Assembly (NCBI GenBank): GCA_034722435.1
Contig: JAYENX010000003.1
Location: 1 to 52,754, forward strand
DNA: 52,754 nt
Direction: 5' to 3'
Source of the DNA: Nanobdellota archaeon
Lineage (GTDB): Archaea; Nanobdellota; Nanobdellia; Woesearchaeales; JAHWHD01
Positions 10,602-34,723 of the stretch are shown here, one piece after another. The notes beneath the pieces were generated by a model, which searched no databases, was not told the origin of the DNA, and worked only from the letters and a program-made list of their open reading frames with translations. Each line of letters opens with the position of its first letter. Position 1 is the first letter of the stretch. Position numbers and translations under genes: made by a program.

Positions 10602-11191
10602 TAAAAGCTATTGTGTTTGATTTTTCTGGAGTTTTAGCTTTTCCTGGTAATTTTGATAAATTTGCGGAAGATTTTGCAAAGAAGTCAGGAAAAAATGTTA
10701 AAGATGTACATAAAGAGTTTCATATTTTTTGGCAGGATTGGAAAGTTGGTAAAATTAATTTTGATTTTGTAATTGATGGTATTATTAATATTTTTGAACT
10801 AGATAATACCTATAAAGATTGGATTAAAAAATATTTTATATCTTATTATACTTTTAATAAACCTATGATGGAATTTGTTCAAAGTATTAAAGGAAAGTAC
10901 CAATTATATGTATTATCTAATCATACTTCTGAACTTTATTGGAGTTTTTCTAAAAAATTTGAACTTAATACGATTTTTGATGATGAATATATTTCGTGTG
11001 ATATGGGTTTAGCTAAACCTCATAAAGAAATATTTGAAGTTTTTTTGAAAAAAACAAATTTGAAAGCGAATGAGTGTATATTCATAGATAATCAAGATTG
11101 GAATTTAGTAGAACCAAAGAAATTAGGTTTTCATGTTGTTTATTATGAAGTATTTGATAAGTTTGAAAAAGATATGAATAAATTATTGTAG
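10598..11191 (+). CDS. HAD-superfamily phosphatase
   Basis: IVFDFSGVL, VLSNH, KPHKEIF, IFIDNQ. Confidence 0.88.
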   Translation: MIKAIVFDFSGVLAFPGNFDKFAEDFAKKSGKNVKDVHKEFHIFWQDWKVGKINFDFVIDGIINIFELDNTYKDWIKKYFISYYTFNKPMMEFVQSIKGKYQLYVLSNHTSELYWSFSKKFELNTIFDDEYISCDMGLAKPHKEIFEVFLKKTNLKANECIFIDNQDWNLVEPKKLGFHVVYYEVFDKFEKDMNKLL

Positions 11192-15406: not shown

Positions 15407-15763
15407 TTAATTTTTAAGTTTTTGATATGCTATATTACTAATTGCGCGCATAGTAATATCATTTCTTATATCAACCCATTCACTGTCTTGAACAATAATG
15501 TCTAAATTGTCTTCTAATTCCATTTGCATTTCTACAAATTCAAGGGAGTCTAATCCTAGTTCGGCTATTAATCGTGTATCTATGGATTTAGGGTCTGCTT
15601 GTGCATATTTGCCAATAAGTTTGTATACTTCTGACATTGCTCTTTCTCCTGTTTCGGGATTAAAGTCTGAGTATGATCTCCGAAGATAATCCATGCCCTG
15701 TCTAAGTAATTCTTTTTTTTTTGTGCCTAATTTAAAACTATTTTCATTTTCTGTTATGGTCAT
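15407..15763 (-). CDS. Acyl-carrier-protein-like protein with N-terminal extension
   Basis: Phosphopantetheine attachment motif LIAELGLDSLEFVEMQMELED. Confidence 0.75.
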   Translation of the reverse strand: MTITENENSFKLGTKKKELLRQGMDYLRRSYSDFNPETGERAMSEVYKLIGKYAQADPKSIDTRLIAELGLDSLEFVEMQMELEDNLDIIVQDSEWVDIRNDITMRAISNIAYQKLKN

Positions 15764-19231: not shown

Positions 19232-19266
19232 ATTTTTTATTTTTTTATTAATTTAATTTTCTTAAA

Positions 19267-20529
19267 ATGTTGGTTTTTGATATGAAAAAAATTATAATTT
19301 TTACTCTTGTATTATTGGTTTTACTTAGTTCGGTTTTTGCTTCTGATGTTGACACTTGCGGTCCTGATACAGAATCGGAGATTTGTGAAGTAGATAATTC
19401 TGGTTTTGATATTTATTCTGCATTAACCAGAGGTCTTGAAGCTGAGCTCACGCATGGATATGAAGATTCTTTGTGTGTAATATATTTTTATGGTGATGGG
19501 TGTTCGCAATGTGCGAAAATTAAACCGTTTATTGATAATCTTGAAAATAAGTATGGAGACAAAATACATCTTAACAGGTTTGAACTTTATAATAATTTGA
19601 AAAATTATCAACTTTATACTAATTATTGTAGTATACAAAATATCCCTCTTAAAGATAGAGGTATACCTTTTGTGGCTATAGATGATAAATTTTTTATGGG
19701 TTCAGAACAGATAATTGACAATCTTGAAGATGAGATTGATTCTTTGTTAGAGTCTGGTGTTAAAACTTGTCCATTGCCTGACGCAATGAGTTGTCATCAA
19801 GTTGACGATTATAATAAATCAACAGTAGATACTGCGATTCTGGGTCTTGATAATGATAAGATTACTTTGCCTTTAATTATAGGTGCGGGGCTTATAGATG
19901 GTGTTAACCCTTGTGCATTTGCTGTATTAATATTTTTATTAACATTCTTGATTGAGGTTTCAAGTACAAAGAAAAGAATGGTTAAAGCGGGGATTGCGTA
20001 TGTTGCTGCTGTTTATGTTACATATTTTGTTGCAGGTCTAGGTTTGTTGTCGGTTATTCAGGTTACTGGACTTTCGAGGATAATATTAATAGTTGCTGCC
20101 ATAGTTGCGATAGTTGCAGGTTTGATAAATGTTAAAGATTATTTTTGGTATGGAAAAGGGTTCTCTCTTAAAATTTCTGGAAGCAGGAAAGGTATTATTG
20201 AAAAATGGACTAAACGTGCCAACATTCCTGCAGCTTTGGTTTTAGGATTTCTTGTATCAATGTTTGAACTTCCTTGTACAGGTGGTGTATATTTGGCTAT
20301 ACTCGCGTTACTTGCTAATACCGGTACTAGGATATCAGCAGTTCCGCATCTTTTATTATATAATTTAATGTTTATACTTCCGTTAGTTGTAATCATACTT
20401 GCAGTTACATTTGGTATGAAAGCTGAACATATAGAAAATTGGCGACAGAAAAGGAAAAATGTGATGAAGTTAGTGATGGGTTTGGTTTTACTTGCGTTAG
20501 GGTTTGCGTTATTGTTTGGGTGGTTTTAG
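19267..20529 (+). CDS. Thioredoxin-like domain fused to CcdA/DsbD transmembrane domain
   Basis: YFYGDGCSQC, RGIPFV; DGVNPCAFAV and FELPCTGGVY conserved Cys pair. Confidence 0.88.
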   Translation: MLVFDMKKIIIFTLVLLVLLSSVFASDVDTCGPDTESEICEVDNSGFDIYSALTRGLEAELTHGYEDSLCVIYFYGDGCSQCAKIKPFIDNLENKYGDKIHLNRFELYNNLKNYQLYTNYCSIQNIPLKDRGIPFVAIDDKFFMGSEQIIDNLEDEIDSLLESGVKTCPLPDAMSCHQVDDYNKSTVDTAILGLDNDKITLPLIIGAGLIDGVNPCAFAVLIFLLTFLIEVSSTKKRMVKAGIAYVAAVYVTYFVAGLGLLSVIQVTGLSRIILIVAAIVAIVAGLINVKDYFWYGKGFSLKISGSRKGIIEKWTKRANIPAALVLGFLVSMFELPCTGGVYLAILALLANTGTRISAVPHLLLYNLMFILPLVVIILAVTFGMKAEHIENWRQKRKNVMKLVMGLVLLALGFALLFGWF

Positions 20530-21327
20530 ATAGTTTTTTATCATAACATTAATCCTGTAGCATTTAGTTTGTTTGGTTTAGATGTATATTGGTATGGAAT
20601 AATTTTCGTGTTAAGTTTTGTGATTGCTTATTTCTTTATGAAGTTCTTGGTTAAAGAAAGGGGTATACATTTAACAAATCATGATATTGATGACTTTTTT
20701 CTTTGGCTGATAATTTCTGTATTGTTGGGTGCACGGTTAATATATGCAGTTGTCTATAATTTCTGGTTCTTTGTTGCTGAGCCTTTACATTTATTTTATT
20801 TTTGGGAAGGAGGTTTAAGTTTTCATGGTGGTTTGATAGGTGCTGTTATCATGGGTCTTATTTATTGTAAAGTTAAGAAGTGTAAATTTTATGATATTGC
20901 AGATATATTAGTTATACCTCTTGCTCTTGGTTTGATGCTTGGTAGGATTGGAAATTTTATCAATGGGGAATTGTATGGTCGAGTAACTTCTGTCAGTTGG
21001 GCTTTTAAGTTTGAAGGTGCTGAAGGTTTTAGGCATCCTTCGCAAATTTATGAATGTTTTAAAAATTTTGTTATATTTTCAATCTTGTGGACAGTGCGTA
21101 AGAAGGATTGGCCTCGAGGGTTTTTGTTCTGGATGTTTATTACATTGTACGGAGTTTTTAGGTTTTTGATTGAGTTCGTAAGACAGCCCGATCGACAGAT
21201 AGGCGACTACGGTTTGTTTTTTGGATGGATGAGCATGGGTCAGATATTGTGTAGTGTGATGGTTGTTTTAGGTGTTTATTTCTTGGTTAGGTTATGGAAA
21301 AATGATAAAATTAATAAATACAATTAA
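20530..21327 (+). CDS. lgt: Prolipoprotein diacylglyceryl transferase (ORF track start 20569; conserved frame extends to 20530)
   Basis: YWYG, GARLIY, GGLSFHGG, GRIGNFINGELYGR, HPSQIYE, RFLIEFVRQPD; in-frame HNINPVAF upstream of the TTG. Confidence 0.93.
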   Translation: MVFYHNINPVAFSLFGLDVYWYGIIFVLSFVIAYFFMKFLVKERGIHLTNHDIDDFFLWLIISVLLGARLIYAVVYNFWFFVAEPLHLFYFWEGGLSFHGGLIGAVIMGLIYCKVKKCKFYDIADILVIPLALGLMLGRIGNFINGELYGRVTSVSWAFKFEGAEGFRHPSQIYECFKNFVIFSILWTVRKKDWPRGFLFWMFITLYGVFRFLIEFVRQPDRQIGDYGLFFGWMSMGQILCSVMVVLGVYFLVRLWKNDKINKYN

Positions 21328-21341
21328 TATTAATCCATGTT

Positions 21342-22037
21342 ATGAAAGTAGCTGTTGTTTCTAGGGATGAAGATTTGATAAGTCGGTATTTTAAGATATT
21401 TGATTTTAAAAAAGTGTCCCGAGATCCTGACATGGTTATTGCCCTTGGTGGCGATGGTACTTTTCTTTATGCTGAGCAGAAGTATCCAGGAGTTCCTAAA
21501 GTGTTCATATATCATGGTAGTCTTTGCGAGGATTGTAGAGAGCATGACTTTTCTAAGATATTAAGTAAAATTCGTAGGAAAGATTATGCTGTGCATAAGT
21601 TCATGAAACTTTCTGTAAGTGTAAAAGGAGAAAAGTTTTTGGCAATGAATGATGTAAATATTCATTATGTTCCTCCAACAGCTTTAAGATACGAAGTTGC
21701 TGTGGGTGGTGCTTATGATTCTTATATTGGAGATGGGGTTGTGATTGCGACCCCGTATGGTTCGAGTGCTTATTTTTCTTCAATATCTAATAAGAAGTTT
21801 AAAACTGGGATTGGTGTGGCTATTAATAATTCGACTAAAGGAAAAAGAAGTTTTGTTGTAAAAGAAGGAAATCAGTTAAAAATTAAAATTATGAGAGGGC
21901 CTGGTGTTTTGGCAGTGGATTGTAATAAGAAGATTGTTCATCTTAAGGCCGGGGATAAGGTTGTTGTAAAGAAAGCAAGATCTTTTGCAAAAGTGTTGAA
22001 ATTTAGAGGGTATAATCTTAAAATTAAGAAAATTTAA
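21342..22037 (+). CDS. ppnK: NAD kinase
   Basis: ALGGDGTFL, AMNDV, GDGVVIATPYGSSAY. Confidence 0.9.
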   Translation: MKVAVVSRDEDLISRYFKIFDFKKVSRDPDMVIALGGDGTFLYAEQKYPGVPKVFIYHGSLCEDCREHDFSKILSKIRRKDYAVHKFMKLSVSVKGEKFLAMNDVNIHYVPPTALRYEVAVGGAYDSYIGDGVVIATPYGSSAYFSSISNKKFKTGIGVAINNSTKGKRSFVVKEGNQLKIKIMRGPGVLAVDCNKKIVHLKAGDKVVVKKARSFAKVLKFRGYNLKIKKI

Positions 22038-22093
22038 CGAAGTTCTTATAAAACATAAACTATATAAATAATGGATTAAGGTTCTTCTATAAA

Positions 22094-22207
22094 ATGGTAT
22101 ATGTCTGTAAAAATTGTGGAAGAACTTCTGATGTATCTGATAGATGTTGTGATGAAGAAATGTTCATGGATGAATTTGTATTAGATATAGAAGACGATGA
22201 TGTTTAG
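22094..22207 (+). CDS. 37-aa Cys-rich micro-protein (not in ORF track)
   Basis: Manual translation MVYVCKNCGRTSDVSDRCCDEEMFMDEFVLDIEDDDV*; TATA-like upstream, abuts glutaredoxin RBS. Confidence 0.55.
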   Translation: MVYVCKNCGRTSDVSDRCCDEEMFMDEFVLDIEDDDV

Positions 22208-22209
22208 AG

Positions 22210-22461
22210 GTGATTGAAAAAATGGTAAAAGTAATAGTTTATACGACACCAACGTGTCCGTTTTGTACTTCTGTTAAGGAATTTCTTACAGAAAATAAGA
22301 TTGAGTTCGAGAGTATAGATGTTTCAGTTGACCAGGAGAAAGCTAAAGAGATGATTGAGAAGAGTGGTCAGCAAGGAGTTCCTGTGGTTGATATTGATGG
22401 ACAGATTGTAGTTGGATTTAATGAAGAAAAGTTGAAAGAGCTTTTAAAAATAGAGGGATAA
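22210..22461 (+). CDS. Glutaredoxin (NrdH/YruB-like)
   Basis: YTTPTCPFC, GQQGVPVVDIDGQIVVGFN. Confidence 0.92.
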   Translation: MIEKMVKVIVYTTPTCPFCTSVKEFLTENKIEFESIDVSVDQEKAKEMIEKSGQQGVPVVDIDGQIVVGFNEEKLKELLKIEG

Positions 22462-22464
22462 AAA

Positions 22465-22659
22465 ATGGCAAAATATGAAGTAACACAAGAACATGATAAA
22501 TGTATTAGTTGCGGTGCATGTGTAGCTATTTGCGCTGATAATTGGGAAATGGCTGATGATGGTAAAGCAAAGTTTAAAGCAGCTGAGAGTGATGCTGACT
22601 GTAACAAGGATGCTGAAACTGGTTGTCCAGTAAAGTGTATTAAGGTCAAAGAATTATAA
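22465..22659 (+). CDS. Single-cluster ferredoxin
   Basis: CISCGACVAIC ... GCPVKCI. Confidence 0.9.
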   Translation: MAKYEVTQEHDKCISCGACVAICADNWEMADDGKAKFKAAESDADCNKDAETGCPVKCIKVKEL

Positions 22660-22692
22660 TTTTTTCTTTAATTTTTATTACACTAAATAACT

Positions 22693-22826
22693 AGAAAGCC
22701 TCTTTTTTTAAGGTGAGGATGAATGGCTTTCTGGTTCTTTGTGTCTCAAAAATCCGTTTGTCAAAGAGAATGATTGTCAAGCCCATTCAAGGTTGGGTAG
22801 GTCGCTTTCGGCGGATTTTAGTGACA
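22693..22826 (+). mobile_element. ORF-less IS200/IS605-end-like element, copy A
   Basis: agaaagcc..gaggatgaat..ggctttct, then aaaatccg..caagccc-hairpin-gggtag..cggatttt; homologous to 28428..28560 and 48523..48659. Confidence 0.5.
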
Positions 22827-22856
22827 TTTTTATTAAATATAGCGAGGTGTTGATAT

Positions 22857-23093
22857 ATGGCAGGATTTGATCCAAATTTAGATAAAACTCTTTTTGAAGA
22901 GAAAGCAGAGTTTGAAAGAAGTAATGTGGTAGTAGGCGTTAAAGCTTATAATGAAGGAGTTGCAAAGTTGCAGCTTACAAGAGAAAATAAAAAAGCAGAC
23001 GGTTCTACAAGTTTTGCAAAGTTAGGAAGACTTACAAAGGAAGAAGTTGTGGCAATGTTACCTTTGATTGATAAAGCTATGAGTTTTCTTTAA
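22857..23093 (+). CDS. Small conserved protein, probable PC4/whirly-like ssDNA-binding fold
   Basis: VGVKAYNEGVAKLQLTRE...FAKLGRLTKEE; RBS gaggtg. Confidence 0.5.
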   Translation: MAGFDPNLDKTLFEEKAEFERSNVVVGVKAYNEGVAKLQLTRENKKADGSTSFAKLGRLTKEEVVAMLPLIDKAMSFL

Positions 23094-23201
23094 TTTTTTA
23101 ATTTTTTCTTTTTAATTTTGTTTAATTTGATTTTGTTTAATATGAACCTTTTTTGTTTATGTTTCTATAACTTTAAATATTAACCTCTTTTTCTATATTA
23201 T

Positions 23202-23993
23202 ATGAAGGCTTATATTAAGAAACTTTGTAGACGGATTGAAGGTGAGAAGAATATTAAGATACTTTTTGCTGTTGAGAACGGTAGTAGAGCTTGGAGAATG
23301 GAGAGTCAAGATAGTGATTTTGATGTTAGGTTTGTTTTTGTGAGGCCTATAGAGGAGTATGTACAGATAAATAAACCTGGTGAGGTTATTAATGTTGCTT
23401 TTGATGATGAGGGAATTAAAGTTCCTGTGCAAGGTTCTCTTATTGATTTTGCAGGGTTTGATATATTTAAGTTTGTTAAAATGCTTTCTTCGTCTAATCC
23501 TACTTGTATTGAATGGTTAGTTTCTGATATTGTGTATCACGGAACACAGAATAAAGTGTTCAAGGATTTTGCAATTAATAATTTTAATAGAATAAGTCTT
23601 TATCATCATTATAAGTCAATGTGTAGAAATAATTATCTTAAATATTTAAATTCTGATGATTTTGTGACATATAAAAGATATCTTTATGCTCTTAGAGGGC
23701 TCGTGAATGCGAAATGGATTGTGCATAAAAGAACTGTTCCGCCTATTATTTTTACTGATGCTTTGAAAGAGATGGTGGGTATTATTCCTAATCATATTCT
23801 TGAGAAATTAAATGAGATTATTATGTTGAAAGCTAAAGGTAAAGAAAAACAAGTTGTACAAAATATTGTTAAGATGGATACTTATATTGAAGAGTTTTTG
23901 AAAGATGATAGTGAAGCACCTAAAGAGAAGAATCATGGGACATTGAATGATTTGAATGCTGAGTTAAGAAAGATAGTTTTAAAACAGAAATAG
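23202..23993 (+). CDS. Pol-beta-type nucleotidyltransferase (YcgL/RlaP-like)
   Basis: AVENGSRAW..SQDSDFDVRFVF; KRYLYALRGL. Confidence 0.85.
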   Translation: MKAYIKKLCRRIEGEKNIKILFAVENGSRAWRMESQDSDFDVRFVFVRPIEEYVQINKPGEVINVAFDDEGIKVPVQGSLIDFAGFDIFKFVKMLSSSNPTCIEWLVSDIVYHGTQNKVFKDFAINNFNRISLYHHYKSMCRNNYLKYLNSDDFVTYKRYLYALRGLVNAKWIVHKRTVPPIIFTDALKEMVGIIPNHILEKLNEIIMLKAKGKEKQVVQNIVKMDTYIEEFLKDDSEAPKEKNHGTLNDLNAELRKIVLKQK

Positions 23994-24136
23994 TAGATTT
24001 TTGAACATTTAGTTACCATTTCTGAATATATCAACTTATATTAACTGTGGAGATTTATTTTATTATTTAGCACATTTGCTATAAAACAATAAAATATATA
24101 AACTAAATTCTGATTATTTCTTATATTGTTATTTAA

Positions 24137-26002
24137 ATGTTTAAAAGGGGTGTTTTCATGAAAAAAGTATTGACAATGTGTCCATATTGCGGTGTAGGTT
24201 GTTCTTTTTATCTTAATGTTGAAGAAGGTAAGGTTATTGGTGTGACGCCTTGGAAAAAAGATCCTGTTTCCGAGGGTAAGCCTTGTATCAAGGGCCAGTT
24301 TAGTTTTCAAACAATATATGCCAAGGATCGAGTTTTGGACCCTATGATAAGAAAGAATGGTAAACTTGTTCCTGTTACATATGATGAAGCTTACAAACAT
24401 ATCTATAAAAATCTTAAAAAGTTAAAGCCTGAAGAGATTGCTTTCTATGGAAGTTCGCCTTGTACTAATGAAGATAATTATCTTCTACAGAAATTTGCTG
24501 GTGATGTTTTCAAGACTAAAAATTTAGATAGTTGTGCAAGACTTTGTCATGCTACAACATGTTATGCTTTTTTTGAAGCTTTTGGGATAACTGCGATGCC
24601 TGCAAAGATTGATGATTTTAAGAAATCTGATTGTATTTTAATAATGGGTTCTGATCCTGTTGCTTCATATCCTGTAGCCTTTCAAGAAAAAATTTTGGTT
24701 GCGAAGAAGAATGGTGCCAAATTAATCTGTGTCAAGGATTGGAAAGATGAAACTGCTCAGTATGCTGATCTTTATGTTGAGGTTAAGGTAGGCACAGAAA
24801 TGGCTTTTCTTAATGCTGTTATGAATGAGTTACAGCAAATGGGTGCGATTAAGCTACCTGTTGCAATGGTTAAGAATGTTGAGAAGTATACTGCTGATTA
24901 TGTTAAGACGGTTTGTATGCAAACTTCTTTTGATATTAAAAATGTTAAGAAAGTCGCAAAATTGATTGCGAAGAGTAAAAAGTTTTCTTTAGGTTTTGGG
25001 ATGACTCTTACACAGCATACTTATGGTGTTGAAAATGTGTTGGCTGCAATTAATCTTGTGCTTGCTAAGAAAGGTAAGATTATTTCCATGAGAGGGAAAG
25101 CTAATATTCAAGGTGTAGGCGATATGGGTATGTTGCCTAAACAAGGTGGAGATACAATATCGGGTTCAATATTTTTGAATAAGGTGAAAGCTTATTGGAT
25201 TATGGAATCTAATCCTGCACAAAGTATGCCTGATTTGAATGCGTGTCATAAAGTGCTTAAAGATATGTTTTTAGTTTTACATACAACTTATCCTAATGAA
25301 ACAATGAAGTTTGCTGATGTAGTTCTTCCTTCTTGTGCATGGGCTGAGAGGGATGGTAGTTTTACAAATGCTGAGTCTCGAGTGCGTTATGTTGAGAAAG
25401 CTGTTGATTGTATGGGAGAGAGTAAGCCTAACTGGGTTATGATTAAAGAGGTTGCTAAGTATTTTGGTAAGAAGTATAATTATAAAACTTCTGTTGATAT
25501 CTTTAAAGAGATTAAAAAGAAAATAAAAGGGTATGAAGCTATAGATGTTGATAAGTTATTGAAGCATAAATCGCAATGGGTGTATAGACCGATACAGTAT
25601 AAGCATTATCATCCTGTTGAGTTTGAGTGTGTTGAAGAAAATACTTCTAAAGAGTATCCGTTTATTCTTTCGACTAAACGTTGGAAGTTTCATTTTTGTA
25701 CAGGAGAAATGAGTATGCGACAGGAAGTTCTTAGAAAGTTGTCACCTGAAGCTTTATGTCTTGTGAGTAAAGAAGATGGTGCAAAGCTTAAACTTAAAGA
25801 TCATGATAAGGTTGAGATTAGGTCAAGAGTGGGTAAAATCCGGGTTAAGTGTAAGATTACTGATGATGTGCCTCAAGGTCTTGTACTAGTACCTTTTCAT
25901 TTTGAGAAAGTTTTGGTTAACAAGCTTATACCTTTAGAGTTTGGACCTGTTGTTGAGGAGCCTAACCTGAAAAGAATTGCTGTAGCGATTAAAAAGGTGT
26001 AA
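24137..26002 (+). CDS. Molybdopterin oxidoreductase, formate dehydrogenase alpha-like (probable start 24158)
   Basis: CPYCGVGC 4Fe-4S motif, DSCARLCHA, MRGKANIQGVGDMG, ADVVLPSCAWAERDGSFTN, C-terminal molybdopterin-binding domain. Confidence 0.88.
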   Translation: MFKRGVFMKKVLTMCPYCGVGCSFYLNVEEGKVIGVTPWKKDPVSEGKPCIKGQFSFQTIYAKDRVLDPMIRKNGKLVPVTYDEAYKHIYKNLKKLKPEEIAFYGSSPCTNEDNYLLQKFAGDVFKTKNLDSCARLCHATTCYAFFEAFGITAMPAKIDDFKKSDCILIMGSDPVASYPVAFQEKILVAKKNGAKLICVKDWKDETAQYADLYVEVKVGTEMAFLNAVMNELQQMGAIKLPVAMVKNVEKYTADYVKTVCMQTSFDIKNVKKVAKLIAKSKKFSLGFGMTLTQHTYGVENVLAAINLVLAKKGKIISMRGKANIQGVGDMGMLPKQGGDTISGSIFLNKVKAYWIMESNPAQSMPDLNACHKVLKDMFLVLHTTYPNETMKFADVVLPSCAWAERDGSFTNAESRVRYVEKAVDCMGESKPNWVMIKEVAKYFGKKYNYKTSVDIFKEIKKKIKGYEAIDVDKLLKHKSQWVYRPIQYKHYHPVEFECVEENTSKEYPFILSTKRWKFHFCTGEMSMRQEVLRKLSPEALCLVSKEDGAKLKLKDHDKVEIRSRVGKIRVKCKITDDVPQGLVLVPFHFEKVLVNKLIPLEFGPVVEEPNLKRIAVAIKKV

Positions 26003-26004
26003 AT

Positions 26005-26163
26005 ATGGGTTTTGGTGGTTTGCTCAAGGATTTTTTGATTTTTCTTTTATTTATTTTAGTTATTAAGTCTTGGATATTTGGTCAGGGTATAACTCTTAAG
26101 ATTGGTGTGTTGTCGATAATGTTGTTTGTCGTCGCTGCATCTTTTAGGTTTAAGAGTATATAA
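26005..26163 (+). CDS. 52-aa two-TM membrane protein (not in ORF track)
   Basis: Manual translation MGFGGLLKDFLIFLLFILVIKSWIFGQGITLKIGVLSIMLFVVAASFRFKSI*; starts 2 nt after the oxidoreductase stop. Confidence 0.5.
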   Translation: MGFGGLLKDFLIFLLFILVIKSWIFGQGITLKIGVLSIMLFVVAASFRFKSI

Positions 26164-26243
26164 CTTCAATTCGTTTCAAACTTATCGACAGGTATTTATA
26201 AACATAATACAAACATAATAATATATTACTAAATGTAATTATC

Positions 26244-28361
26244 ATGGAGGATGGTAAAATGAAATTAGAAAATGTATTAGCGTTCATATTTGCTTTAATT
26301 TTAGTTGGAGGGGTTTTAGCCGGTTGTCAAAGTGTTGTAGTGCCTAATGATCCAATTGTTGTTGATGGTGTAGGCGCTTATGGTGATTTAGAGTTTGATC
26401 TTGGCAAGGATATTACTACAAAGACTTTTAGTTCTGATGATGAACTTTTGAATTTTATCAAAGACCATGAAAGTGATAATTATTATGGATATGATAATAT
26501 GTTGAAAGGTGGTATGGTTTTAGAAAGCGCTGAAATGGCTGTTGAATCAGTTGCGATGGCAGTTCCAACATCAGTTAATGTCGAAAGAGATTTTTCAGAA
26601 ACTAATGTTCAAGTAACGGGTGTGGATGAAGCTGATATTATCAAGACTGATGGTGACCATATCTATACAGTCTCTGGTAATGTGCTTTTTATTATTAAGG
26701 CTTATCCCGGAGAGGATGCTGAGATTGTTTCTACAATTAAGTTCGAGAACAGGCCTGAGTCTTTATTCATTGATGGAGATACTTTAGCTGTCTTTGGTAA
26801 TTTTAGAGATAATGATTATTTCAAAAAAGTTAATTTCCAGCCTAGGTCTGGTATGACTTATTTGAATGTGTATGATGTTTCTGATAGGGTGGAGCCTGAA
26901 CTTGTTAAAGAGTATAAGTTTGAGGGTGGATATTTTAGAGGACGTATGGTTGATGGATATATGTATATACTTACATCTACAACTCCTTATGCCAGACCTG
27001 TTCCTATGCCTGTAATTTTTGAAGATGGTGTGAAGAGTGAAATGGTTGTGGGAGATATACATTATTTTGATATTAATTATAGAAATCCTGTGTTTGTAAA
27101 TATACATGCGATTAATATGGACGATTCTGATGAGTTAAGTTCAAAAACTGTTGTAGTTGAATATTCGCAGAATCTTTACATGTCAGAGAATAATATCTAC
27201 ATAACGTATACTGAGAGTATAAGTGAATGGGAACTTCAAAAAGTGATTGTGATGGAACTTCTTGAACCATTCCTTAGTGATTCTGATAAATTTTTGATAG
27301 AGAAGATTAAAAAGGTTGATAATGATATTCTTTCCAGAGCTGAGAAGGATGCCAAGATTTTTGCAGTTTATGAAACTTATATGTCTGGTTTGACAAGGGA
27401 AGAACAAGATGATCTTGAAGACGATGCTGAAAAATTGTTGAAGGAGAAGCTCGAAGAGTACAAATATTTCGAGTTTACAGTGATCAATAAAATATCTGTT
27501 GATAAGTCCGAGATTAAAGTAGTGGTTAATGGTAAAGTTCCTGGGCACGTGATTAATCAATTTTCAATGGATGAATTTGATGATATATTTAGAATTGCAA
27601 CTACAGTTAATTCTAGATGGTCAAGATTTGATAGTGGTAGGAGTGAATCTGTAAATAATATTTACACTTTGAATTCGGATCTTGAGATACTTGACGAGCT
27701 TGAAGATCTTGCAGAAGGTGAAAGGATATTTTCAACAAGGTTTATGGGTGATAAACTTTACATGGTAACCTTCAAACAGGTTGATCCATTTTTTGTGATT
27801 GATTTGAGTAATCCTAATGAGATAAAGGCACTCGGAGAATTGAAAATCCCTGGTTTTTCAAGATATCTTCATCCGTATGATGAGAATACTATTATAGGGA
27901 TTGGAAAGGATGCGAGTGAAAGCGGCAGAACTAGAGGTTTAAAGATTTCTTTGTTTGATGTTTCAGATGTTTCTGATCCTAAAGAGGTTGCGCAGTATGT
28001 TGCTGAGTCAAGATATTCTGGAACATCTGCTGAGTATGAGCATAAAGCGTTTCTCTTTTCAAAGGAGAAAAATCTGTTAGTTATTCCTGTGTATAGTTAT
28101 GATTATGATGATACAACACAGGATTATAACGGAGCTTTTGTGTTTGATATTAGCAAGGATGAGATTGAACTTCGTGGGTTGATTGATCATTCACAAGGTA
28201 AGCAAAGGTATTATCAGCCGGCTGTGGAGAGAAGTTTGTATATTGAGGAACTTCTTTATACAAAGTCGAAGGATTTGCTTAGGATTAATCAGATAGAAGA
28301 TCTTGAGAAAGTAAAGAATGTAGAGCTGAAGTATTCAGATCCTGGAATACCTGTTTATTAA
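26244..28361 (+). CDS. Secreted beta-propeller-domain lipoprotein
   Basis: Lipobox VLAGC; FSETNVQVTGVDEADIIKTDG; INQFSMDE; RFMGDKLYMVTFKQVDPFFVIDLS; LKIPGFSRYLHP. Confidence 0.85.
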   Translation: MEDGKMKLENVLAFIFALILVGGVLAGCQSVVVPNDPIVVDGVGAYGDLEFDLGKDITTKTFSSDDELLNFIKDHESDNYYGYDNMLKGGMVLESAEMAVESVAMAVPTSVNVERDFSETNVQVTGVDEADIIKTDGDHIYTVSGNVLFIIKAYPGEDAEIVSTIKFENRPESLFIDGDTLAVFGNFRDNDYFKKVNFQPRSGMTYLNVYDVSDRVEPELVKEYKFEGGYFRGRMVDGYMYILTSTTPYARPVPMPVIFEDGVKSEMVVGDIHYFDINYRNPVFVNIHAINMDDSDELSSKTVVVEYSQNLYMSENNIYITYTESISEWELQKVIVMELLEPFLSDSDKFLIEKIKKVDNDILSRAEKDAKIFAVYETYMSGLTREEQDDLEDDAEKLLKEKLEEYKYFEFTVINKISVDKSEIKVVVNGKVPGHVINQFSMDEFDDIFRIATTVNSRWSRFDSGRSESVNNIYTLNSDLEILDELEDLAEGERIFSTRFMGDKLYMVTFKQVDPFFVIDLSNPNEIKALGELKIPGFSRYLHPYDENTIIGIGKDASESGRTRGLKISLFDVSDVSDPKEVAQYVAESRYSGTSAEYEHKAFLFSKEKNLLVIPVYSYDYDDTTQDYNGAFVFDISKDEIELRGLIDHSQGKQRYYQPAVERSLYIEELLYTKSKDLLRINQIEDLEKVKNVELKYSDPGIPVY

Positions 28362-28427
28362 TTTTTTAATTGTTTTTTCTTTTTTTAAATTTTTTATATA
28401 TTTTTATTTTCTTTTACACGAAAAAAA

Positions 28428-28560
28428 GCAGAAAGCCTTGCCCTTGAGGGAGAGGATGAATGCTATTTATGTTTTGTGCTTTTTTTGTGTCCTAGAAATC
28501 CGTCTCGAAAATCTTGCGCAAGCCCGGTCCTTTAGGGCTGGGTAAGTAGGATTTTAGGAT
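28428..28560 (+). mobile_element. ORF-less IS200/IS605-end-like element, copy B
   Basis: gaaagccttgcccttgagggagaggatgaat and caagcccggtcc-ttta-gggctgggtaag; enclosing stem tcctagaaatcc/ggattttagga. Confidence 0.55.
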
Positions 28561-28561
28561 T

Positions 28562-28804
28562 TCAATGACTTCTATAATAGATATAATATCCTAGAAGGCC
28601 GAATAGTCCGAAAATGAATCCAAGTACGTAAGCTAAACCTGGACTGGATTTAATTCTTACAGCCCATTTATAACATAGACTTGCACAGCCCATACCTATG
28701 AGTCCACTTAGGATAACTCGTGGTGATTTGGTAAGAATTAGGCTTACAATTATAATCACTACAACAATTCCGTTGTACTGCATAGGTGTGTTTTCACTTG
28801 TCAT
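28562..28804 (-). CDS. Small membrane protein
   Basis: 80 aa, three hydrophobic segments. Confidence 0.55.
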   Translation of the reverse strand: MTSENTPMQYNGIVVVIIIVSLILTKSPRVILSGLIGMGCASLCYKWAVRIKSSPGLAYVLGFIFGLFGLLGYYIYYRSH

Positions 28805-28861
28805 GATTGTGTTAAGTGTTTCTTTTTTTATAAAGGTTATTGATACGTAATCGAATAATAA

Positions 28862-29002
28862 TTATATCTCTTCAAGAATGTGTTTTTTTAATACCATTGT
28901 TCCTTTTCTGCCGCAGTAAGGGCATTGGTTAAAGGGTACTTTTTTTGTTCTATCTTTTGGTTCTACAATAAAATTGCATTTAGTACATCTGAATTTGACC
29001 AT
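28862..29002 (-). CDS. 46-aa Zn-ribbon protein (not in ORF track)
   Basis: Manual translation MVKFRCTKCNFIVEPKDRTKKVPFNQCPYCGRKGTMVLKKHILEEI*. Confidence 0.7.
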   Translation of the reverse strand: MVKFRCTKCNFIVEPKDRTKKVPFNQCPYCGRKGTMVLKKHILEEI

Positions 29003-29052
29003 GGAGAAGTTTAATGAATACAGATATTTAAATCTTGTGAAAAATATGTTTA

Positions 29053-29910
29053 TTATCCCTGTTTTCTTTCTAAAGCGAGTGTAGCTTTTAGAGCTGTGAT
29101 TGCTACTTCCATTTGGGCTTTATCAGGCTCTTTAGTGGTTATTTTTTGTATGCTTAAACCTGGTGCACTAAGAATTTTGATAAACCAATTATGTCTGTAT
29201 GTGCCTGCGAATTTTAGGAACTCGAATGAGATTCCTGCTACTACAGGGATTAGTATTATTCTTGCAACGAATCTAGTTAATAAACTGTCAGTAATAATTA
29301 TTGAAAAAAGGATGATGCTTATGATTAAAACTATTACTAAAAAAGCTGTTCCGCATCTTGGATGAAGTGTAGAATATTTTTTTACGTTTTTTACTTTTAA
29401 TGTTTCATTATTCTCGTAACAGTTTACAGCTTTATGTTCTGCACCGTGGTATTGGAATATTCTTCTTACATCTTTCATGAGTGAGATTGCTAGAATATAT
29501 GCTACAAATATTCCAATTCGTATAACTCCATCAATTATGTTAAAAATAACTCCTTTATCAACTGTGATTAGTTTTGTGAGGTATAGCGGGAGAGCAATGA
29601 AAAATAAAATTCCAAATAAAAAAGATACTCCAATTACGAAAGCGATGTCTTTTCCTTTGATTTCTTCATCGATGCCTGTTGCTTGGTTAGCTGACCAGGT
29701 GAGTGCTTTTATTCCCATGACAAGTGCATCAACTAGACTTATTATACCCCTTATGAAAGGTAATCTAAATGGTTTTTTCATGCGTCTAATACGTTCTTTT
29801 TTAGTTACAATTTTCCCGTCTTCGTTTCGCACGCTAATGACTAGATGGTTTGGTGAGCGCATCATAACTCCTTCAATTACGGCTTGTCCTCCAACTTCGC
29901 AATGACTCAT
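29053..29910 (-). CDS. DUF1385 (YqhQ-like) membrane protein
   Basis: GGQAVIEGVMMR, FQYHGAEHK, HPRCGTAF, ITTKEP. Confidence 0.9.
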   Translation of the reverse strand: MSHCEVGGQAVIEGVMMRSPNHLVISVRNEDGKIVTKKERIRRMKKPFRLPFIRGIISLVDALVMGIKALTWSANQATGIDEEIKGKDIAFVIGVSFLFGILFFIALPLYLTKLITVDKGVIFNIIDGVIRIGIFVAYILAISLMKDVRRIFQYHGAEHKAVNCYENNETLKVKNVKKYSTLHPRCGTAFLVIVLIISIILFSIIITDSLLTRFVARIILIPVVAGISFEFLKFAGTYRHNWFIKILSAPGLSIQKITTKEPDKAQMEVAITALKATLALERKQG

Positions 29911-29968
29911 GAAGTTCTAGTTTTACCCTGGATTATAAAAATCTTTTCATCACTATCTAAAAGGTGCA

Positions 29969-30041
29969 TTTTCTCGTCGAGGCCCCGACGGTAAAAAAAC
30001 GAAACATTTAAATACTAAATGCGCTATTATTGACGATAAAC
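29969..30041. promoter_or_regulatory. TCGTCG-palindrome sites around the BRE/TATA of the Lys-rich gene
   Basis: ttttctcgtcgagg, ccgacggtaaaa, then cgaaacatttaaata, then ttattgacgataaa. Confidence 0.45.
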
Positions 30042-30090
30042 AGATAATTCTGTTGAAAATAAATAAAAAAATTCGAGAGGGTGAATAACT

Positions 30091-30288
30091 ATGGCACAAA
30101 AAGTAGCAAAAGTTGGAATTAAAAAAGAATCTGGATATCTATATTTTGTAGATAAGCAAGGAGATATCTCTAGAGCTAAAATGGCAAGAGGCGGCAAGAA
30201 GAAGAAAGCAGCAAAGAAAAAGAAAGTTGCTAAGAAGAAAAAAGTCGTTAAAAAGAAAAAAGTTGCTAAAAAGAAAAAGAGAAGGTAA
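30091..30288 (+). CDS. Small basic protein with Lys-rich tail, possible chromatin protein
   Basis: KVGIKKESGYLYFVDKQGDISRAKMARGG plus KKKKVAKKKK repeats; strong RBS. Confidence 0.65.
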   Translation: MAQKVAKVGIKKESGYLYFVDKQGDISRAKMARGGKKKKAAKKKKVAKKKKVVKKKKVAKKKKRR

Positions 30289-30339
30289 TTTTTAGTTCTT
30301 TGATTTTTTTTATTTTTTTATTTTATTAAAATAGATAAA

Positions 30340-31269
30340 TTATGTTAATATTTCAATTCTGTTGTTTTTACTGATTTTAAACATTTCAGAACCAACACCT
30401 TTACCTACAAAGAAAGATTGTTTTGACATTATTGACGAGAATACATCCAGGATAGATGTTCTTCTTTTATATTCTATAAAATTTATTTTTGTGGTGTTAA
30501 GTTCTTGTTCAAGAATTGTTTTTGCAGTATCTTTGTCCCCTAATATGTCTACTAGGCCTAGTTCTAGAGCGTCGAATCCAATAAAGAATTCGCCTGTAGC
30601 AAGTTCGGCTGCTTTAGTTTTGTCTATACCTCGGTTTTTTGCAACTTCTGATACAAAATAGTTATGTATTGAATCTAGTTGTCCTTGGAGTTTTTGTTCT
30701 TCATCGTTTGTAAGTTGTTTAAATGGGGATCCTATGTCTTTGTATTTGCCTGATATCATTCTTTGATATGTTATGTTATATTTGTCAAATAGGCCTGAGA
30801 ATTCTAGGTATGAACTTATAACTCCTATTGAGCCTACTATGCTTAAGTCGTTGGCTACGATTTTATCGCAAGCACTTGCGACCCAATATGCTCCAGAAAC
30901 TCCTGCCTCTCTTATCACTGCGATTTTTAATTTTTTAACTTTTTTAATCCTGTCAGCAATTTCTTTTGAAGCAACAGCTGTCCCGCCTGGTGAGTTTATT
31001 TCAAATATTATGGCTTTAATATTTTGATCCTTATCTGCTTCGTCAATAAACCTTATTATTTCGGTTGATGATGTACCTTCGCTTGAGAGAATGCCTTCGC
31101 TAGCACCTACAGATATTGGTCCTGTTATGTAAATGGTGGCTACATCGCTTCCAAGAAAAGATTTATGGTTGTTTGATAATGCGGCAAGGATTATGATTGT
31201 TCCAATTATCGCTAGAACCAGAATTCCTATGATAAGTTTGCCAGATATTGTTTTTTTCTTTTTTGGCAT
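30340..31269 (-). CDS. sppA: Signal peptide peptidase SppA (S49)
   Basis: INSPGGTAVASKEI, SGAYWVASA, GSIGVI, GKYKDIGSP. Confidence 0.92.
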   Translation of the reverse strand: MPKKKKTISGKLIIGILVLAIIGTIIILAALSNNHKSFLGSDVATIYITGPISVGASEGILSSEGTSSTEIIRFIDEADKDQNIKAIIFEINSPGGTAVASKEIADRIKKVKKLKIAVIREAGVSGAYWVASACDKIVANDLSIVGSIGVISSYLEFSGLFDKYNITYQRMISGKYKDIGSPFKQLTNDEEQKLQGQLDSIHNYFVSEVAKNRGIDKTKAAELATGEFFIGFDALELGLVDILGDKDTAKTILEQELNTTKINFIEYKRRTSILDVFSSIMSKQSFFVGKGVGSEMFKISKNNRIEILT

Positions 31270-31354
31270 ATTTAATTTCTTAACCTCTTTTTGTATAATT
31301 ATTATTTTAATACTATATAAAGATAGTGTTGGATAATGCTTTGTAGAAAGTATT

Positions 31355-32029
31355 TTATTTAGAATAGAATCCTGTGATGCATCCGGAAGCTTCCCAAAGA
31401 TTGGTTACAATAAAATCTGCAGATTTCTCTGCGCCCGCATGGTTCTTATGTTGTATGAATTTAATATTTACTTTGAGAATTTGTGAAAGATAATTTCTTA
31501 GTTTAACATCTATAGCATTATCCCCTAGCATCCAGATATCTCCTCCTTTGTAGCCAAGTTCTTGGAGTAATTTTAATGCGAGGATAGGTCCGGGTTTAAC
31601 CAAGCCAGGACTCATGGATTCTTTCCAATATTGGTATGCGTCAAATTTATCTTCTAGTCCTAGAGAGATAAGCTCGTACATAGCGTGTGGATTATCGCTT
31701 AATATTCCTGTTTTGAATCCTAAACGTTTCGTAGTTTCAATAAAATGGTCTGTTCCTGGATATTTTTTAATTTTTTTTTGTTTTGCGAGTTCAATAGTTC
31801 CTTCTAAGGTTTCTCGGGGATCGAATTCTCTGAATGTTTCCCAGAATGTATTAAAACTAACACCTAACCTTGAGATAAAGGGGTGGTAATCAAAAGTGGT
31901 ATCTTTGATAGTTATATATTTGTGACCTAATGCATGTGCTGTCTTGACTGTAGCTTCGAGATAAAAATCTTCTATAGAGATTAATGATTGATCAAGATCG
32001 CAAATTAAACACCCTTTAGTTTGTTTCAT
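31355..32029 (-). CDS. HAD-superfamily hydrolase
   Basis: ICDLDQSL, ILSDN, KPGP, MLGDNAID. Confidence 0.78.
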   Translation of the reverse strand: MKQTKGCLICDLDQSLISIEDFYLEATVKTAHALGHKYITIKDTTFDYHPFISRLGVSFNTFWETFREFDPRETLEGTIELAKQKKIKKYPGTDHFIETTKRLGFKTGILSDNPHAMYELISLGLEDKFDAYQYWKESMSPGLVKPGPILALKLLQELGYKGGDIWMLGDNAIDVKLRNYLSQILKVNIKFIQHKNHAGAEKSADFIVTNLWEASGCITGFYSK

Positions 32030-32101
32030 TTTTTTGTTGATGTTTTGGTTGTAATAAAAACCTTATGCAAACCTTTATAAATATTCATAGAGTTTTATAC
32101 T

Positions 32102-32449
32102 TTGATGAGTAAGAAAAAAGACGAATTAGCAAAACAGGAAAAACTTGCACAAGAGATTAAAAGAATCAGAATGCCAAAGGGTACAGAAGTTCTTGGAATT
32201 GTTGAGAAACGATTAGGCGGTTCAAGGATGTATGTTAGATGTCTTGATGGTAAAGTTAGGATTTGCAGAATTCCTGGAAGGTTACAAAGAAGGCTTTGGG
32301 TAAGAGAGGGTAACATTGTTATTGCTGAGCCTTGGGAACTTGGCGGAGAAACTAAAGGTGATATTGTTTATAAATATAGACCGTCGCAAGTAGATTTTCT
32401 GAAGAAGCGTGGTATGCTTAAATTGTTAGATGATTTTGAAGAATTTTAA
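32102..32449 (+). CDS. eif1a: Translation initiation factor aIF-1A
   Basis: EKRLGGSRMYVRCLDGKVRICRIPGRL..RLWVREG, KGDIVYKY. Confidence 0.96.
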   Translation: MMSKKKDELAKQEKLAQEIKRIRMPKGTEVLGIVEKRLGGSRMYVRCLDGKVRICRIPGRLQRRLWVREGNIVIAEPWELGGETKGDIVYKYRPSQVDFLKKRGMLKLLDDFEEF

Positions 32450-32552
32450 GTAATCTTTTCAATATATATTTTCTATTAATTACTACTTTATAATAGAAAT
32501 TCTTATAAACTCTTACTATTCTGAGTTTACTATTAAATTAGAGGGTGGTTAT

Positions 32553-33155
32553 ATGGGAAGAGATGGATTTTTTACTGTTTTTATGGATGTTCTTTTGATA
32601 ATCTTATTTTTAGCACTTGGTAGAATGATATTTAATCTGACAGGTGTTGATGAAGTAAGACATCTGGCAATAATGTTTGTTCTGATGCTGTTCGCTGCTT
32701 TTTCGTTAATTGGCGCGTACAGAGAAAGTAGAACTTCGTGGGGAGTTTTAATGTTTATAGTGATACTTGCATTTATTCAAATATTTTGGGTTTATTTCAT
32801 GGCAAAAATTCACTTTGTACTTTTTGTGCTGTTAATATTGTTTACATTGGTTACTTTTGGTGTGACTGTAATCAAGGTTGTTGCAGGCAAGGATGAAGAT
32901 GAAGATTTTGATATACCTGATTTTCCAGAAAATACTGAGGATACAGGAGCTACTGTAGAAGAAATATTACCTGAACATTCAGTAGTTCTAAAAACTACAG
33001 AACCTGGTAAATATTTGGCAAGTAAGACTGGAACAACGTATCATGCGCCTAAATGTGAGTGGGCAAAACGTATCAAAAAAGCGAACAGAGTTTGGCTTGA
33101 TTCTGATAAAGAGGCTAAGAAGAAAGGTTATAAGAAGCATGATTGTTTGAAGTAA
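32553..33155 (+). CDS. Four-TM protein with C-terminal Ada metal-binding-like domain
   Basis: YLASKTGTTYHAPKCEWAKRIK..EAKKKGYKKHDC. Confidence 0.65.
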   Translation: MGRDGFFTVFMDVLLIILFLALGRMIFNLTGVDEVRHLAIMFVLMLFAAFSLIGAYRESRTSWGVLMFIVILAFIQIFWVYFMAKIHFVLFVLLILFTLVTFGVTVIKVVAGKDEDEDFDIPDFPENTEDTGATVEEILPEHSVVLKTTEPGKYLASKTGTTYHAPKCEWAKRIKKANRVWLDSDKEAKKKGYKKHDCLK

Positions 33156-33251
33156 ATCTTATTTTTATTTTATTTTTTTAATATTTATCTTGTTTTAAAA
33201 TTCTAAGTTGTTTGAATTTATATTTTAGTTTATTTATTTTTAATTTATTTA

Positions 33252-33662
33252 TTATTTTTCTCGTATTATCCAGATGATTAATCCTATAATACCTATACTT
33301 AAAGCGGAATCCGCTATATTGAAAGAGGGCCAGAATCCAATACTGATAAAGTCAATTACGTATCCGAAGAATAGTCTATCAACAAGGTTTCCTAGAAGGC
33401 CTCCAAGTACGAGTCCGGTGAAAGTTTGGTAAGAAGTTGTTTTTGGGATCTTCTTATAATAATATATAATACCTGCAAGTATTGCAAATGAGACAATAAT
33501 AAGGAATATTGTTTGGTTTTGGAGTATGCCGAAGCCTGCTCCATAATTTTTGATAAAATTGGTGCTAGAAGTTCTTATCCAATATTTTGAAATTTGGTCC
33601 GTGATAAATATTGTTACTGCGCTTAAAATAAATGCTTTAGAAATATTTTTCATGTTTTTCAC
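33252..33662 (-). CDS. lspA: Lipoprotein signal peptidase II
   Basis: [25 protein letters not shown] and FNIADS (both catalytic Asp). Confidence 0.93.
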
Positions 33663-33966
33663 CAGATGCGATTCTTTCTATGTTTGTTAAGCGTTGGTTA
33701 ATAGCATCTAGAGTTGCTCTTAGTCCATCAAGTTTAGCAGATATTAATTCAAGATCTTTGTTAATTATTTGAGGTTCTCGTTGATGGGGGTTTTGTTGCG
33801 GGGGTCTGTTGAAGTCCATAGCGGGCATTTGCATAGGATTTTCAGATTCAAACCTTTGTGGAGGACTTTCAATGCTTGGTTCGTGTATATTTTCTCCTGG
33901 AATTCGTGGTTCATTGAATGGGAATTCGGGTTCTTTATGTTTTTTTAGAAAATCAAAAAATGCCAT
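33637..33966 (-). CDS. Hypothetical protein (Pro/Gln-rich, C-terminal coiled coil)
   Basis: [31 protein letters not shown]; overlaps the lspA start. Confidence 0.65.
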
Positions 33967-33970
33967 GTGT

Positions 33971-34723
33971 CTATCCTCCGTTTAATTTTCCCATGGCACT
34001 TTCTAAAATGCCAATAGGTAAATACTTTGCAACTTTGAAAATTATAGTTTCAGGGTATGCTTTTATGTTTCTTTCTCTTACTTGTTTAGCAAGTAAAAGA
34101 GTTCCTTCTTCTTTTATTTTTTCGTTAACCATCATAGTGAAAAGTATGCCTTTCATTTCATAATCTTTTTTAATTTGTGTGATTAGATTTGCAAAAACTG
34201 TATCTTGATAAGTGCCTGTTTTTTCTGCAAGTGAACCCGAGAAATCTATTAAAGTTTTTTTGGATTTTATAATTTCAATAATTTCTTCAGTTGTAAAGTT
34301 TGCAATATAAGTGCCAAGGTCAACTTCAAGATGTTCAAAATCAAACATTTCTTCTTTTACAAAGAATATTTTGTAATCTTTTCCCAGGATTGATTGAAGA
34401 TCTTGATCTTTATAATAATCGTTAAAGGAATCAATTTCTGTTTTATTAAGTATGTATGGAGCTTCGCCTTTAGGGTTAGCAAATTTTGCTTTGAAGCCTG
34501 TTTCTATTTTTAAATCTTGAAGAAGGAATATGCTGTCTGATGTTATAATGTTGGCTTGAAGGTGTACACTATCTGAATAAAGATAGAGGCCAAAGCCTAC
34601 AACAACAATAATTATAATTACGCTAGTGATAAGTAATGCTTTTACGAATTTTCTTAGCATCCAGAGACCTAGGCCAATTATTGCGATTACAATAATAACT
34701 CCTACTATCCAATTTAAAACCAT
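33971..34723 (-). CDS. Hypothetical membrane-anchored protein
   Basis: Two N-terminal TMs, 250 aa. Confidence 0.6.
   Translation of the reverse strand: MVLNWIVGVIIVIAIIGLGLWMLRKFVKALLITSVIIIIVVVGFGLYLYSDSVHLQANIITSDSIFLLQDLKIETGFKAKFANPKGEAPYILNKTEIDSFNDYYKDQDLQSILGKDYKIFFVKEEMFDFEHLEVDLGTYIANFTTEEIIEIIKSKKTLIDFSGSLAEKTGTYQDTVFANLITQIKKDYEMKGILFTMMVNEKIKEEGTLLLAKQVRERNIKAYPETIIFKVAKYLPIGILESAMGKLNGG

Follow-up and report, generated by a model that had tools for sequence, protein, structure and literature searches.

A 52.7-kb contig from the genome of a Nanobdellota archaeon (hereafter the window, meaning the whole stretch of DNA that was analyzed) encodes homologues of two bacterial lipoprotein maturation enzymes, the prolipoprotein diacylglyceryl transferase Lgt and the lipoprotein signal peptidase II LspA, while a homologue of a third, Lit, is encoded elsewhere in the genome. 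The three genes are present with intact catalytic residues, they are distributed across the phylum, the archaeal Lgt sequences are monophyletic and, in four genomes, enrichment of lipobox proteins is linked to the presence of the enzymes. We consider it reasonably likely that this Woesearchaeota-type archaeon natively runs a bacterial, Firmicute-style pathway of lipoprotein maturation, for which the lipid donor is most likely an external, ester-linked phosphatidylglycerol (PG).

Specialist papers state that no archaeal Lgt or Lsp homologues have been identified or reported and describe AliA and AliB instead (PMC12462473, 2025; PMC13631571, 2026). We searched an even sample of 301 genomes from the phylum of this archaeon, each with a completeness of 90% or more, and counted Lit and lipid genes in 151. 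The statement fails for this large archaeal lineage, as Lgt and LspA occur in ~88% of the 301 genomes and Lit in ~76% of the 151. Our finding contradicts what is currently a textbook-level statement and fills a gap flagged by these authors themselves, who noted archaea with many predicted lipoproteins yet no AliA or AliB (PMC12462473, PMC13631571). In the open-access literature, we found no report that Woesearchaeota or DPANN archaea have Lgt or LspA. The genes themselves already carry names, since the NCBI pipeline automatically annotates archaeal lgt and lspA homologues; this had been guessed in an earlier note on this DNA, written from the sequence of the window. What we describe extends known enzyme families to another domain of hosts and is not a new kind of system, and the Lgt-LspA-Lit trio is the Firmicute route to lyso-form lipoproteins. 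AliA and AliB of Haloferax volcanii likewise act on archaeal lipobox substrates, and the lipobox cysteine is lipidated, but they attach archaeol and are not recognized as Lgt homologues in standard searches (PMC12462473, PMC13631571), whereas true Lgt, LspA and Lit homologues are encoded here. Pfam DUF373 was tried as a proxy for AliA and dropped, as each of the four archaeal controls, among them Sulfolobus, also gave a match.

The Lgt, LspA and Lit homologues

The lgt gene occupies positions 20530..21327 on the plus strand of the window and is the only copy in the genome. The open reading frame (ORF) at 20569-21327 matched PF01790 with an E value of 4.9e-70 (236 bits, cut-off 24.9) over profile positions 7-239 of 240, and reading from 20554 extended the match to positions 1-239. 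The protein also passed the TIGR00544 equivalog cut-off (209.1 bits versus 118.9) and aligned over its full length with Escherichia coli Lgt (PDB 5AZB; phmmer E value 1e-44, 36% identity). The HGG and GRIGNFINGELYGR motifs are both present, and alignments to 5AZB and E. coli K-12 Lgt revealed that Y26, H103 (within HGG), R143, N146, E151, G154, Y235, R239 and E243 are all retained. The same nine residues are invariant across eight archaeal homologues. Thus, the earlier description of an Lgt with intact HGG and RxGNFxNxExxGR motifs holds, with the family cut-offs passed and every key E. coli residue in place. Despite the shared full-length alignment and nine key residues, the archaeal protein differs from E. 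coli Lgt (5AZB/5AZC) in lacking ~22 residues of the periplasmic head domain, in belonging to a separate clade, in its archaeal host and in having no canonical start at the conserved N-terminus. The window Lgt is predicted to transfer diacylglyceryl from PG to the lipobox cysteine, for which the lipobox enrichment described below gives indirect support.

The start of lgt is unusual. The homologous N-terminus begins at 20530, which is an ATA codon where relatives have ATG, and the first canonical start is a TTG at 20569. The 13 N-terminal codons that are kept in homologues (IVFYHNINPVAFS) come directly after the TAG that terminates the upstream gene, in the same frame (window 20527-20571). Although its codon is ATA, position 20530, where the earlier note had placed the start, corresponds to the true homologous N-terminus. 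The public gene call for an identical Lgt sequence (P0004, 239 amino acids) starts still later and loses the equivalent of the essential Tyr26. The ATA could be a non-canonical start, a site of termination-reinitiation or a base error.

The lspA gene (33252..33662, minus strand), also present once in the genome, encodes a compact protein of 136 amino acids. It matched PF01252 (Peptidase_A8) with an E value of 3.2e-28 (99.1 bits, cut-off 25) and passed the TIGR00077 equivalog cut-off marginally (76.6 bits versus 73.95). Alignment to the structures 6RYO (Staphylococcus aureus), 5DIR (Pseudomonas aeruginosa) and 9EMZ revealed that the catalytic aspartate pair is retained, with the equivalent of D124 in VIDFI and that of D143 in FNIADS (P. 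aeruginosa numbering), as are N112 and R116 (GNLVDR), D23 and K27 (DQISKY), and N54 and G56 (KNYGAG). This agrees with the earlier identification of an LspA bearing both catalytic aspartate motifs. The archaeal protein differs from bacterial LspA (6RYO, 5DIR; PF01252, TIGR00077) in its length of 136 amino acids, its shorter extracytoplasmic loops, its near-cut-off equivalog score and its archaeal host. LspA enzymes cleave only lipidated prolipoproteins and are inhibited by globomycin, and the archaeal protein is predicted to behave likewise. Two small ORFs without a family match (109 and 250 amino acids) lie immediately upstream of lspA on the minus strand (window 33637-34723). Since the 109-amino-acid ORF overlaps lspA by 26 bases, both small ORFs and lspA may form an operon.

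In bacteria, Lit moves the acyl chain that is ester-linked at sn-2 onto the amine of the cysteine, and roles have been assigned to its catalytic dyad (His85/His153) and aromatic pocket (F149, F157 and W162) (PMC8275575). The Lit homologue of the archaeon is encoded outside the window, on contig C26 at positions 10144-10803, and scored 61.4 bits against PF07314 (cut-off 24). When aligned to Bacillus cereus Lit (7B0O), it retains the catalytic His85 and His153 together with V89, F149 and F157, while W162 is replaced by tyrosine. Lit proteins of three archaeal relatives have the same pattern, with both histidines kept and tyrosine or tryptophan at the last position. Since its score against the NCBIfam equivalog NF051877 (28 bits) does not reach the cut-off of 400, we regard the protein as a PF07314 family member and only a candidate equivalog. 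Membership in this family and the five retained residues are what it shares with Lit of B. cereus and Enterococcus (7B0O); the equivalog score and the tyrosine at position 162 set it apart, and its activity is a prediction from sequence.

Distribution and ancestry of the genes

Lgt was detected above the Pfam cut-off in 265 of the 301 genomes, several of them single-contig or closed. LspA was likewise found in 265/301 at the Pfam cut-off and in 266/301 at an E value of at most 0.001, again including several single-contig genomes. Two unpublished genomes (G243 and G244) are included in the 301 and in the tree described below; leaving them out gives an Lgt tally of 263/299. G301 was included in small searches of relatives, and no claim depends on any of the three. 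Within the order to which the window belongs, the few absences of Lgt and of LspA seldom coincide, as expected from gaps in metagenome-assembled genomes (MAGs). Elsewhere in the class, in other families, Lgt and LspA are missing from one and the same set of eight genomes (G018, G031, G059, G085, G089, G092, G106 and G142). Lit was above its cut-off in 115 of 151 genomes (~76%), and none of these eight is among the Lit-positive genomes. Among 14 control organisms, only Lactococcus gave a Lit match. In five relatives (G102, G101, G088, G108 and G063), lit and lgt are separated by 0.1-3 kb.

Several Lgt-family matches were recovered from some relatives (six in G197, four in G027 and three in G058), suggesting that paralogues have multiplied in some branches.

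In a maximum-likelihood tree of 34 archaeal and 78 bacterial Lgt sequences, all archaeal sequences formed one clade (SH-aLRT 99) with a stem length of 0.37. The bacterial set consisted of E. coli Lgt and named loci among the matches listed in a contig scan with motif patterns, which were mostly from Pseudomonadota, Thermodesulfobacteriota and Nitrospirota. Identity to the window Lgt was 50-75% for archaeal homologues and 33-46% for the bacterial sequences among the matches listed. The archaeal Lgts are thus monophyletic, and the window gene is not a recent import, which answers for Lgt the question that the earlier note had put to phylogeny. Desulfurellaceae Lgt appeared as sister to the archaeal clade with a support of 92, without a star, and is not to be trusted as a signal of the donor. 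One Lgt from a MAG labelled "uncultured Methanosarcinales archaeon" (L036:2953-3780; 45.5% G+C; beside aIF5A and an M50 protease) nests within the DPANN clade; either the contig is mis-binned or the gene was transferred between DPANN and another archaeon.

The window is contig C3 of a 1.30-Mb genome in 60 contigs (G000), with an estimated completeness of 94.5% and contamination of 2%. It encodes the archaeal markers ribosomal proteins L15e, S8e and L37e, eIF-1A, a Cdc6/Orc1 ATPase and deoxyhypusine synthase, and the nearest public homologues of its Lgt are labelled "Candidatus Woesearchaeota archaeon" or "Nanoarchaeota archaeon"; both support the earlier assignment to a DPANN-like archaeon. 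As a MAG of 60 contigs with 2% estimated contamination could have drawn bacterial genes into its bin, we weighed whether lgt and lspA are contaminants or the contig is chimeric, a possibility that the earlier note had itself raised. However, archaeal genes lie on both sides of them on this single contig, with L15e 2.8 kb from lgt and eIF-1A 0.8 kb from lspA. G+C content is uniform along the window (0.27-0.37 in 2-kb segments), and that of lgt and lspA is 0.326, compared to 0.33 for the genome. Moreover, lgt and lspA are present in 88% of 301 relatives, several assembled as single contigs, and the archaeal Lgt sequences form a clade of their own. Thus, lgt and lspA are native, and contamination, to which we give next to no weight, is already refuted by the phylum distribution and the Lgt tree.

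Predicted lipobox substrates and the probable donor lipid

Two predicted lipoproteins are encoded in the window. A secreted beta-propeller (26244..28361, plus strand; PF09826, E value 1e-146) has the N-terminus MEDGKMKLENVLAFIFALILVGGVLAGC, and its signal peptide ends in LAGC, with the lipobox cysteine at position 28, just as the earlier note had described. An S-layer-like protein (49149..51545, plus strand; PF05124 S_layer_C; TIGR01564, 35 bits versus 25) has the lipobox AMAAC (Cys31) at its N-terminus. Since the S-layer-like protein carries a lipobox, the surface layer itself may be lipid-anchored through Lgt.

Lipobox proteins are numerous in the genome, where the earlier note had allowed that they might prove few. 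A loose PROSITE-like pattern matched 63 ORFs, ~40 of them textbook. With a strict pattern (a signal peptide ending in [LVI][ASTVI][GAS]C) and ORFs of at least 100 amino acids, there were 29 matches. The beta-propeller was also recovered in this census. When scores for each residue at +1 were normalized to amino-acid composition, cysteine scored 21.2, compared to a median of 2.5 and a maximum of 5.4 for the other 19 residues. In G112, an Lgt- and LspA-positive genome from another order (closed, 737 kb, of which 700 kb were examined), there were 12 matches, and cysteine scored 10.9 versus a median of 1.3. In contrast, G059 (closed, 490,885 bp), which lacks Lgt and LspA, gave one match, with cysteine at 1.0 versus 1.0, and G031 (503 kb examined), which also lacks both, gave three, with cysteine at 2.7 versus a median of 1.7 and a maximum of 3.6. 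Thus, an enrichment of the lipobox cysteine of ~8-fold is seen in both Lgt-positive genomes, whereas the two relatives without Lgt show none. Among these four genomes, lipobox proteins covary with the enzymes in the direction that a working pathway predicts.

A model that accommodates these data is that ~30-40 Sec-exported lipobox proteins, including the beta-propeller and the S-layer-like protein, are the substrates. Lgt would lipidate the lipobox cysteine, LspA would then remove the signal peptide, the Lit homologue would probably convert the lipoproteins to the lyso form and SppA would probably clear the freed signal peptides. The pathway may have been gained once from bacteria by an ancestor of the Woesearchaeales/Pacearchaeales-type lineages and inherited since. 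The donor would most likely be an ester-linked diacyl PG that is acquired from a bacterial partner or the community rather than synthesized de novo, and PlsB/PlsC-like enzymes of the cell may re-acylate it. We infer that the enzymes are active and act in this order and, in particular, that the lipid is ester-linked and comes from outside. The proposal of the earlier note that surface proteins are lipidated in the bacterial way gains support from the intact native enzymes and the lipobox enrichment, from which such activity is predicted.

The gene content of the genome bears on the donor. In the genome search we did not find GGGPS, CarS (CDP-archaeol synthase) or a UbiA-type DGGGP synthase, which belong to the archaeal lipid route, and a search of 151 genomes of the phylum for GGGPS gave a single marginal match. 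Searches of G000 for CDP-alcohol phosphatidyltransferase, CdsA and PlsY of the PG route, and for FabA/Z, FabD and an acyl-activating AMP-binding enzyme of the fatty-acid route, also gave no matches. Since these genes were not found, the cell would make neither fatty acids nor PG de novo and would obtain acyl chains from outside; we therefore reject de novo synthesis of ester lipids for G000.

Some genes for handling ester lipids are present. Contig C46 carries a cluster (C46:18110-23376; L119:6111-11377) that encodes a PlsB-like acyltransferase, a GpsA-like glycerol 3-phosphate (G3P) dehydrogenase and a FabF-like ketoacyl synthase with a 150-amino-acid N-terminal extension, as well as a protein with two PLDc_2 domains and a 172-amino-acid protein without a family match. 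The cluster is flanked by genes for archaeal Cdc48, diphthamide synthase, Sua5 and NMD3. The PLD-superfamily protein was considered as a cardiolipin/PG-type synthase, and this was dropped because its nearest NCBIfam matches are Nuc-type nucleases, all far below cut-off. A PlsC-like acyltransferase is encoded on contig C28. In relatives that have such ester-lipid genes, these are sometimes linked to the pathway, as in G058, in which a PlsC-like gene adjoins lspA. GpsA in Woesearchaeota (PMC6431249) and PlsC in DPANN archaea (PMC8204110) have already been reported.

For the donor, the earlier note left two options, scavenged ester lipids and archaeol-PG, and our data lean toward the first. In the Lit reaction, the cysteine amine attacks the sn-2 ester carbonyl, and an ether-linked isoprenoid chain has no such carbonyl; given a conserved Lit with an intact dyad, the group installed by Lgt would be an ester-linked diacylglyceryl. 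Together with the lack of an archaeol pathway in the phylum sample and the presence of bacterial-type G3P and acyltransferase genes, this chemistry leads us to favor scavenged ester-type PG over archaeol-PG as the Lgt donor, as an inference from chemistry and gene content that falls short of proof.

Several observations weigh against a Firmicute-style pathway supplied with ester PG. The archaeal Lgt, LspA and Lit are known from their genes alone. The Lit homologue is distant from the characterized enzyme, both in its NF051877 score (28 bits versus 400) and in its E value of 1e-4 against PDB; it could do something else, and Lit is absent from about a quarter of the genomes searched. Genes for ester lipids are patchy, with strong GpsA matches in ~31 of 151 genomes and PlsC-type matches in 45 of 151. 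For the covariation of lipoboxes with the enzymes, only four genomes were compared. The motif patterns of the search bias the bacterial side of the Lgt tree, from which Bacillota and candidate phyla radiation (CPR) sequences are missing, and the long stem of the archaeal clade (0.37) leaves room for a changed lipid specificity.

Such a change is central to an alternative that we regard as unlikely, in which Lgt has shifted its specificity to archaetidylglycerol (archaeol-PG) taken up from an archaeal host, giving a thioether-linked diether anchor like that of haloarchaeal lipoproteins, and the Lit homologue has another role. The organism is an archaeon without lipid synthesis of its own, and DPANN archaea with known hosts take archaeal lipids. 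The set-apart position of the archaeal Lgt clade, with its stem of 0.37, the patchiness of ester-lipid genes over the lineage and the nesting of the Lgt from the Methanosarcinales-labelled MAG within the DPANN clade also fit this alternative. However, all residues of E. coli Lgt known to contact the lipid and its head group are unchanged, and Lit, whose chemistry needs an ester, has an intact dyad in 76% of the genomes searched and is sometimes encoded beside lgt. In addition, two genomes without Lgt, LspA and Lit also lack lipobox enrichment, and G000 has GpsA-like and PlsB/PlsC-like genes. Less probable still is that the enzymes have been repurposed, such that they lipidate targets without a lipobox or process other signal peptides, while the lipobox proteins are lipidated by an AliA-type system or not at all. 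AliA has been reported in DPANN archaea "with some gaps" (PMC12462473), and LspA barely exceeds the TIGR00077 cut-off. Against repurposing, every catalytic residue is retained, Lgt, LspA and Lit co-occur and are co-absent, and the lipobox cysteine is enriched in the two Lgt/LspA-positive genomes and not in the two negative ones.

The three cloneable enzymes provide a handle on the identity and origin of DPANN membrane lipids. We also suggest, tentatively and with more doubt than confidence, that the trio marks Woesearchaeales/Pacearchaeales-type DPANN archaea whose membranes contain bacterial-type ester phospholipids from bacterial partners. If so, a whole lineage would live across the "lipid divide," and genomes could be screened for the trio to predict if an uncultured DPANN archaeon has a bacterial or an archaeal host. 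The trio may thus serve as a genomic marker for host type.

Other genes in the window

An SppA-type signal peptide peptidase of the S49 family is encoded at 30340..31269 on the minus strand (PF01343, 137 bits; TIGR00706, 181.8 bits versus 155). Degradation of the signal peptides freed by LspA is a plausible role for this protein, although its place in the pathway is conjectural. An acyl carrier protein (ACP)-like protein with a GLDSL phosphopantetheine site (15407..15763, minus strand) scored 25.6 bits against PF00550 (cut-off 20.8) without reaching the ACP cut-offs of NCBIfam; it may be part of the incomplete set of ester-lipid genes rather than of the lipoprotein pathway proper. UppP passed TIGR00753 narrowly (217.8 bits versus 217.5). 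UppP, SppA and the ACP-like protein, all of which the earlier note had listed, are thus real on the evidence of their profile scores and, for the last, its GLDSL site. The "PGP phosphatase" of the same list (6930-7649) is instead a YqeG-family HAD phosphatase (TIGR01668) and was not counted as a gene for PG synthesis. The hints of lipid synthesis within the window therefore fail as they were put forward.

The window also encodes a pyruvoyl arginine decarboxylase and a TrmB regulator. A glutaredoxin gene lies downstream of lgt (22210..22461, plus strand; PF00462, 74 bits), and 10 of 30 relatives (L006, L008, L011, L012, L019-L021, L023, L024 and L032) have a glutaredoxin homologue no more than 1.5 kb from lgt. 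Immediately upstream, a thioredoxin and DsbD-like membrane protein (19267..20529, plus strand) is recognized by weak Pfam and NCBIfam matches, and its TAG stop abuts the lgt frame in-frame. An operon of lgt with the upstream thioredoxin/DsbD-like genes was considered and rejected, as this adjacency occurs in only 1-2 of 30 relatives, and the thioredoxin and DsbD-like protein itself adjoins lgt in only 1 of 30; only the glutaredoxin neighbor recurs. In all, two large thioredoxin-fold membrane or secreted proteins are encoded just upstream of lgt (window 17951-20529), one with an acidic double-disulfide repeat and the other with a DsbD/SfLAP-like membrane domain, and they may form an extracytoplasmic thiol-redox module.

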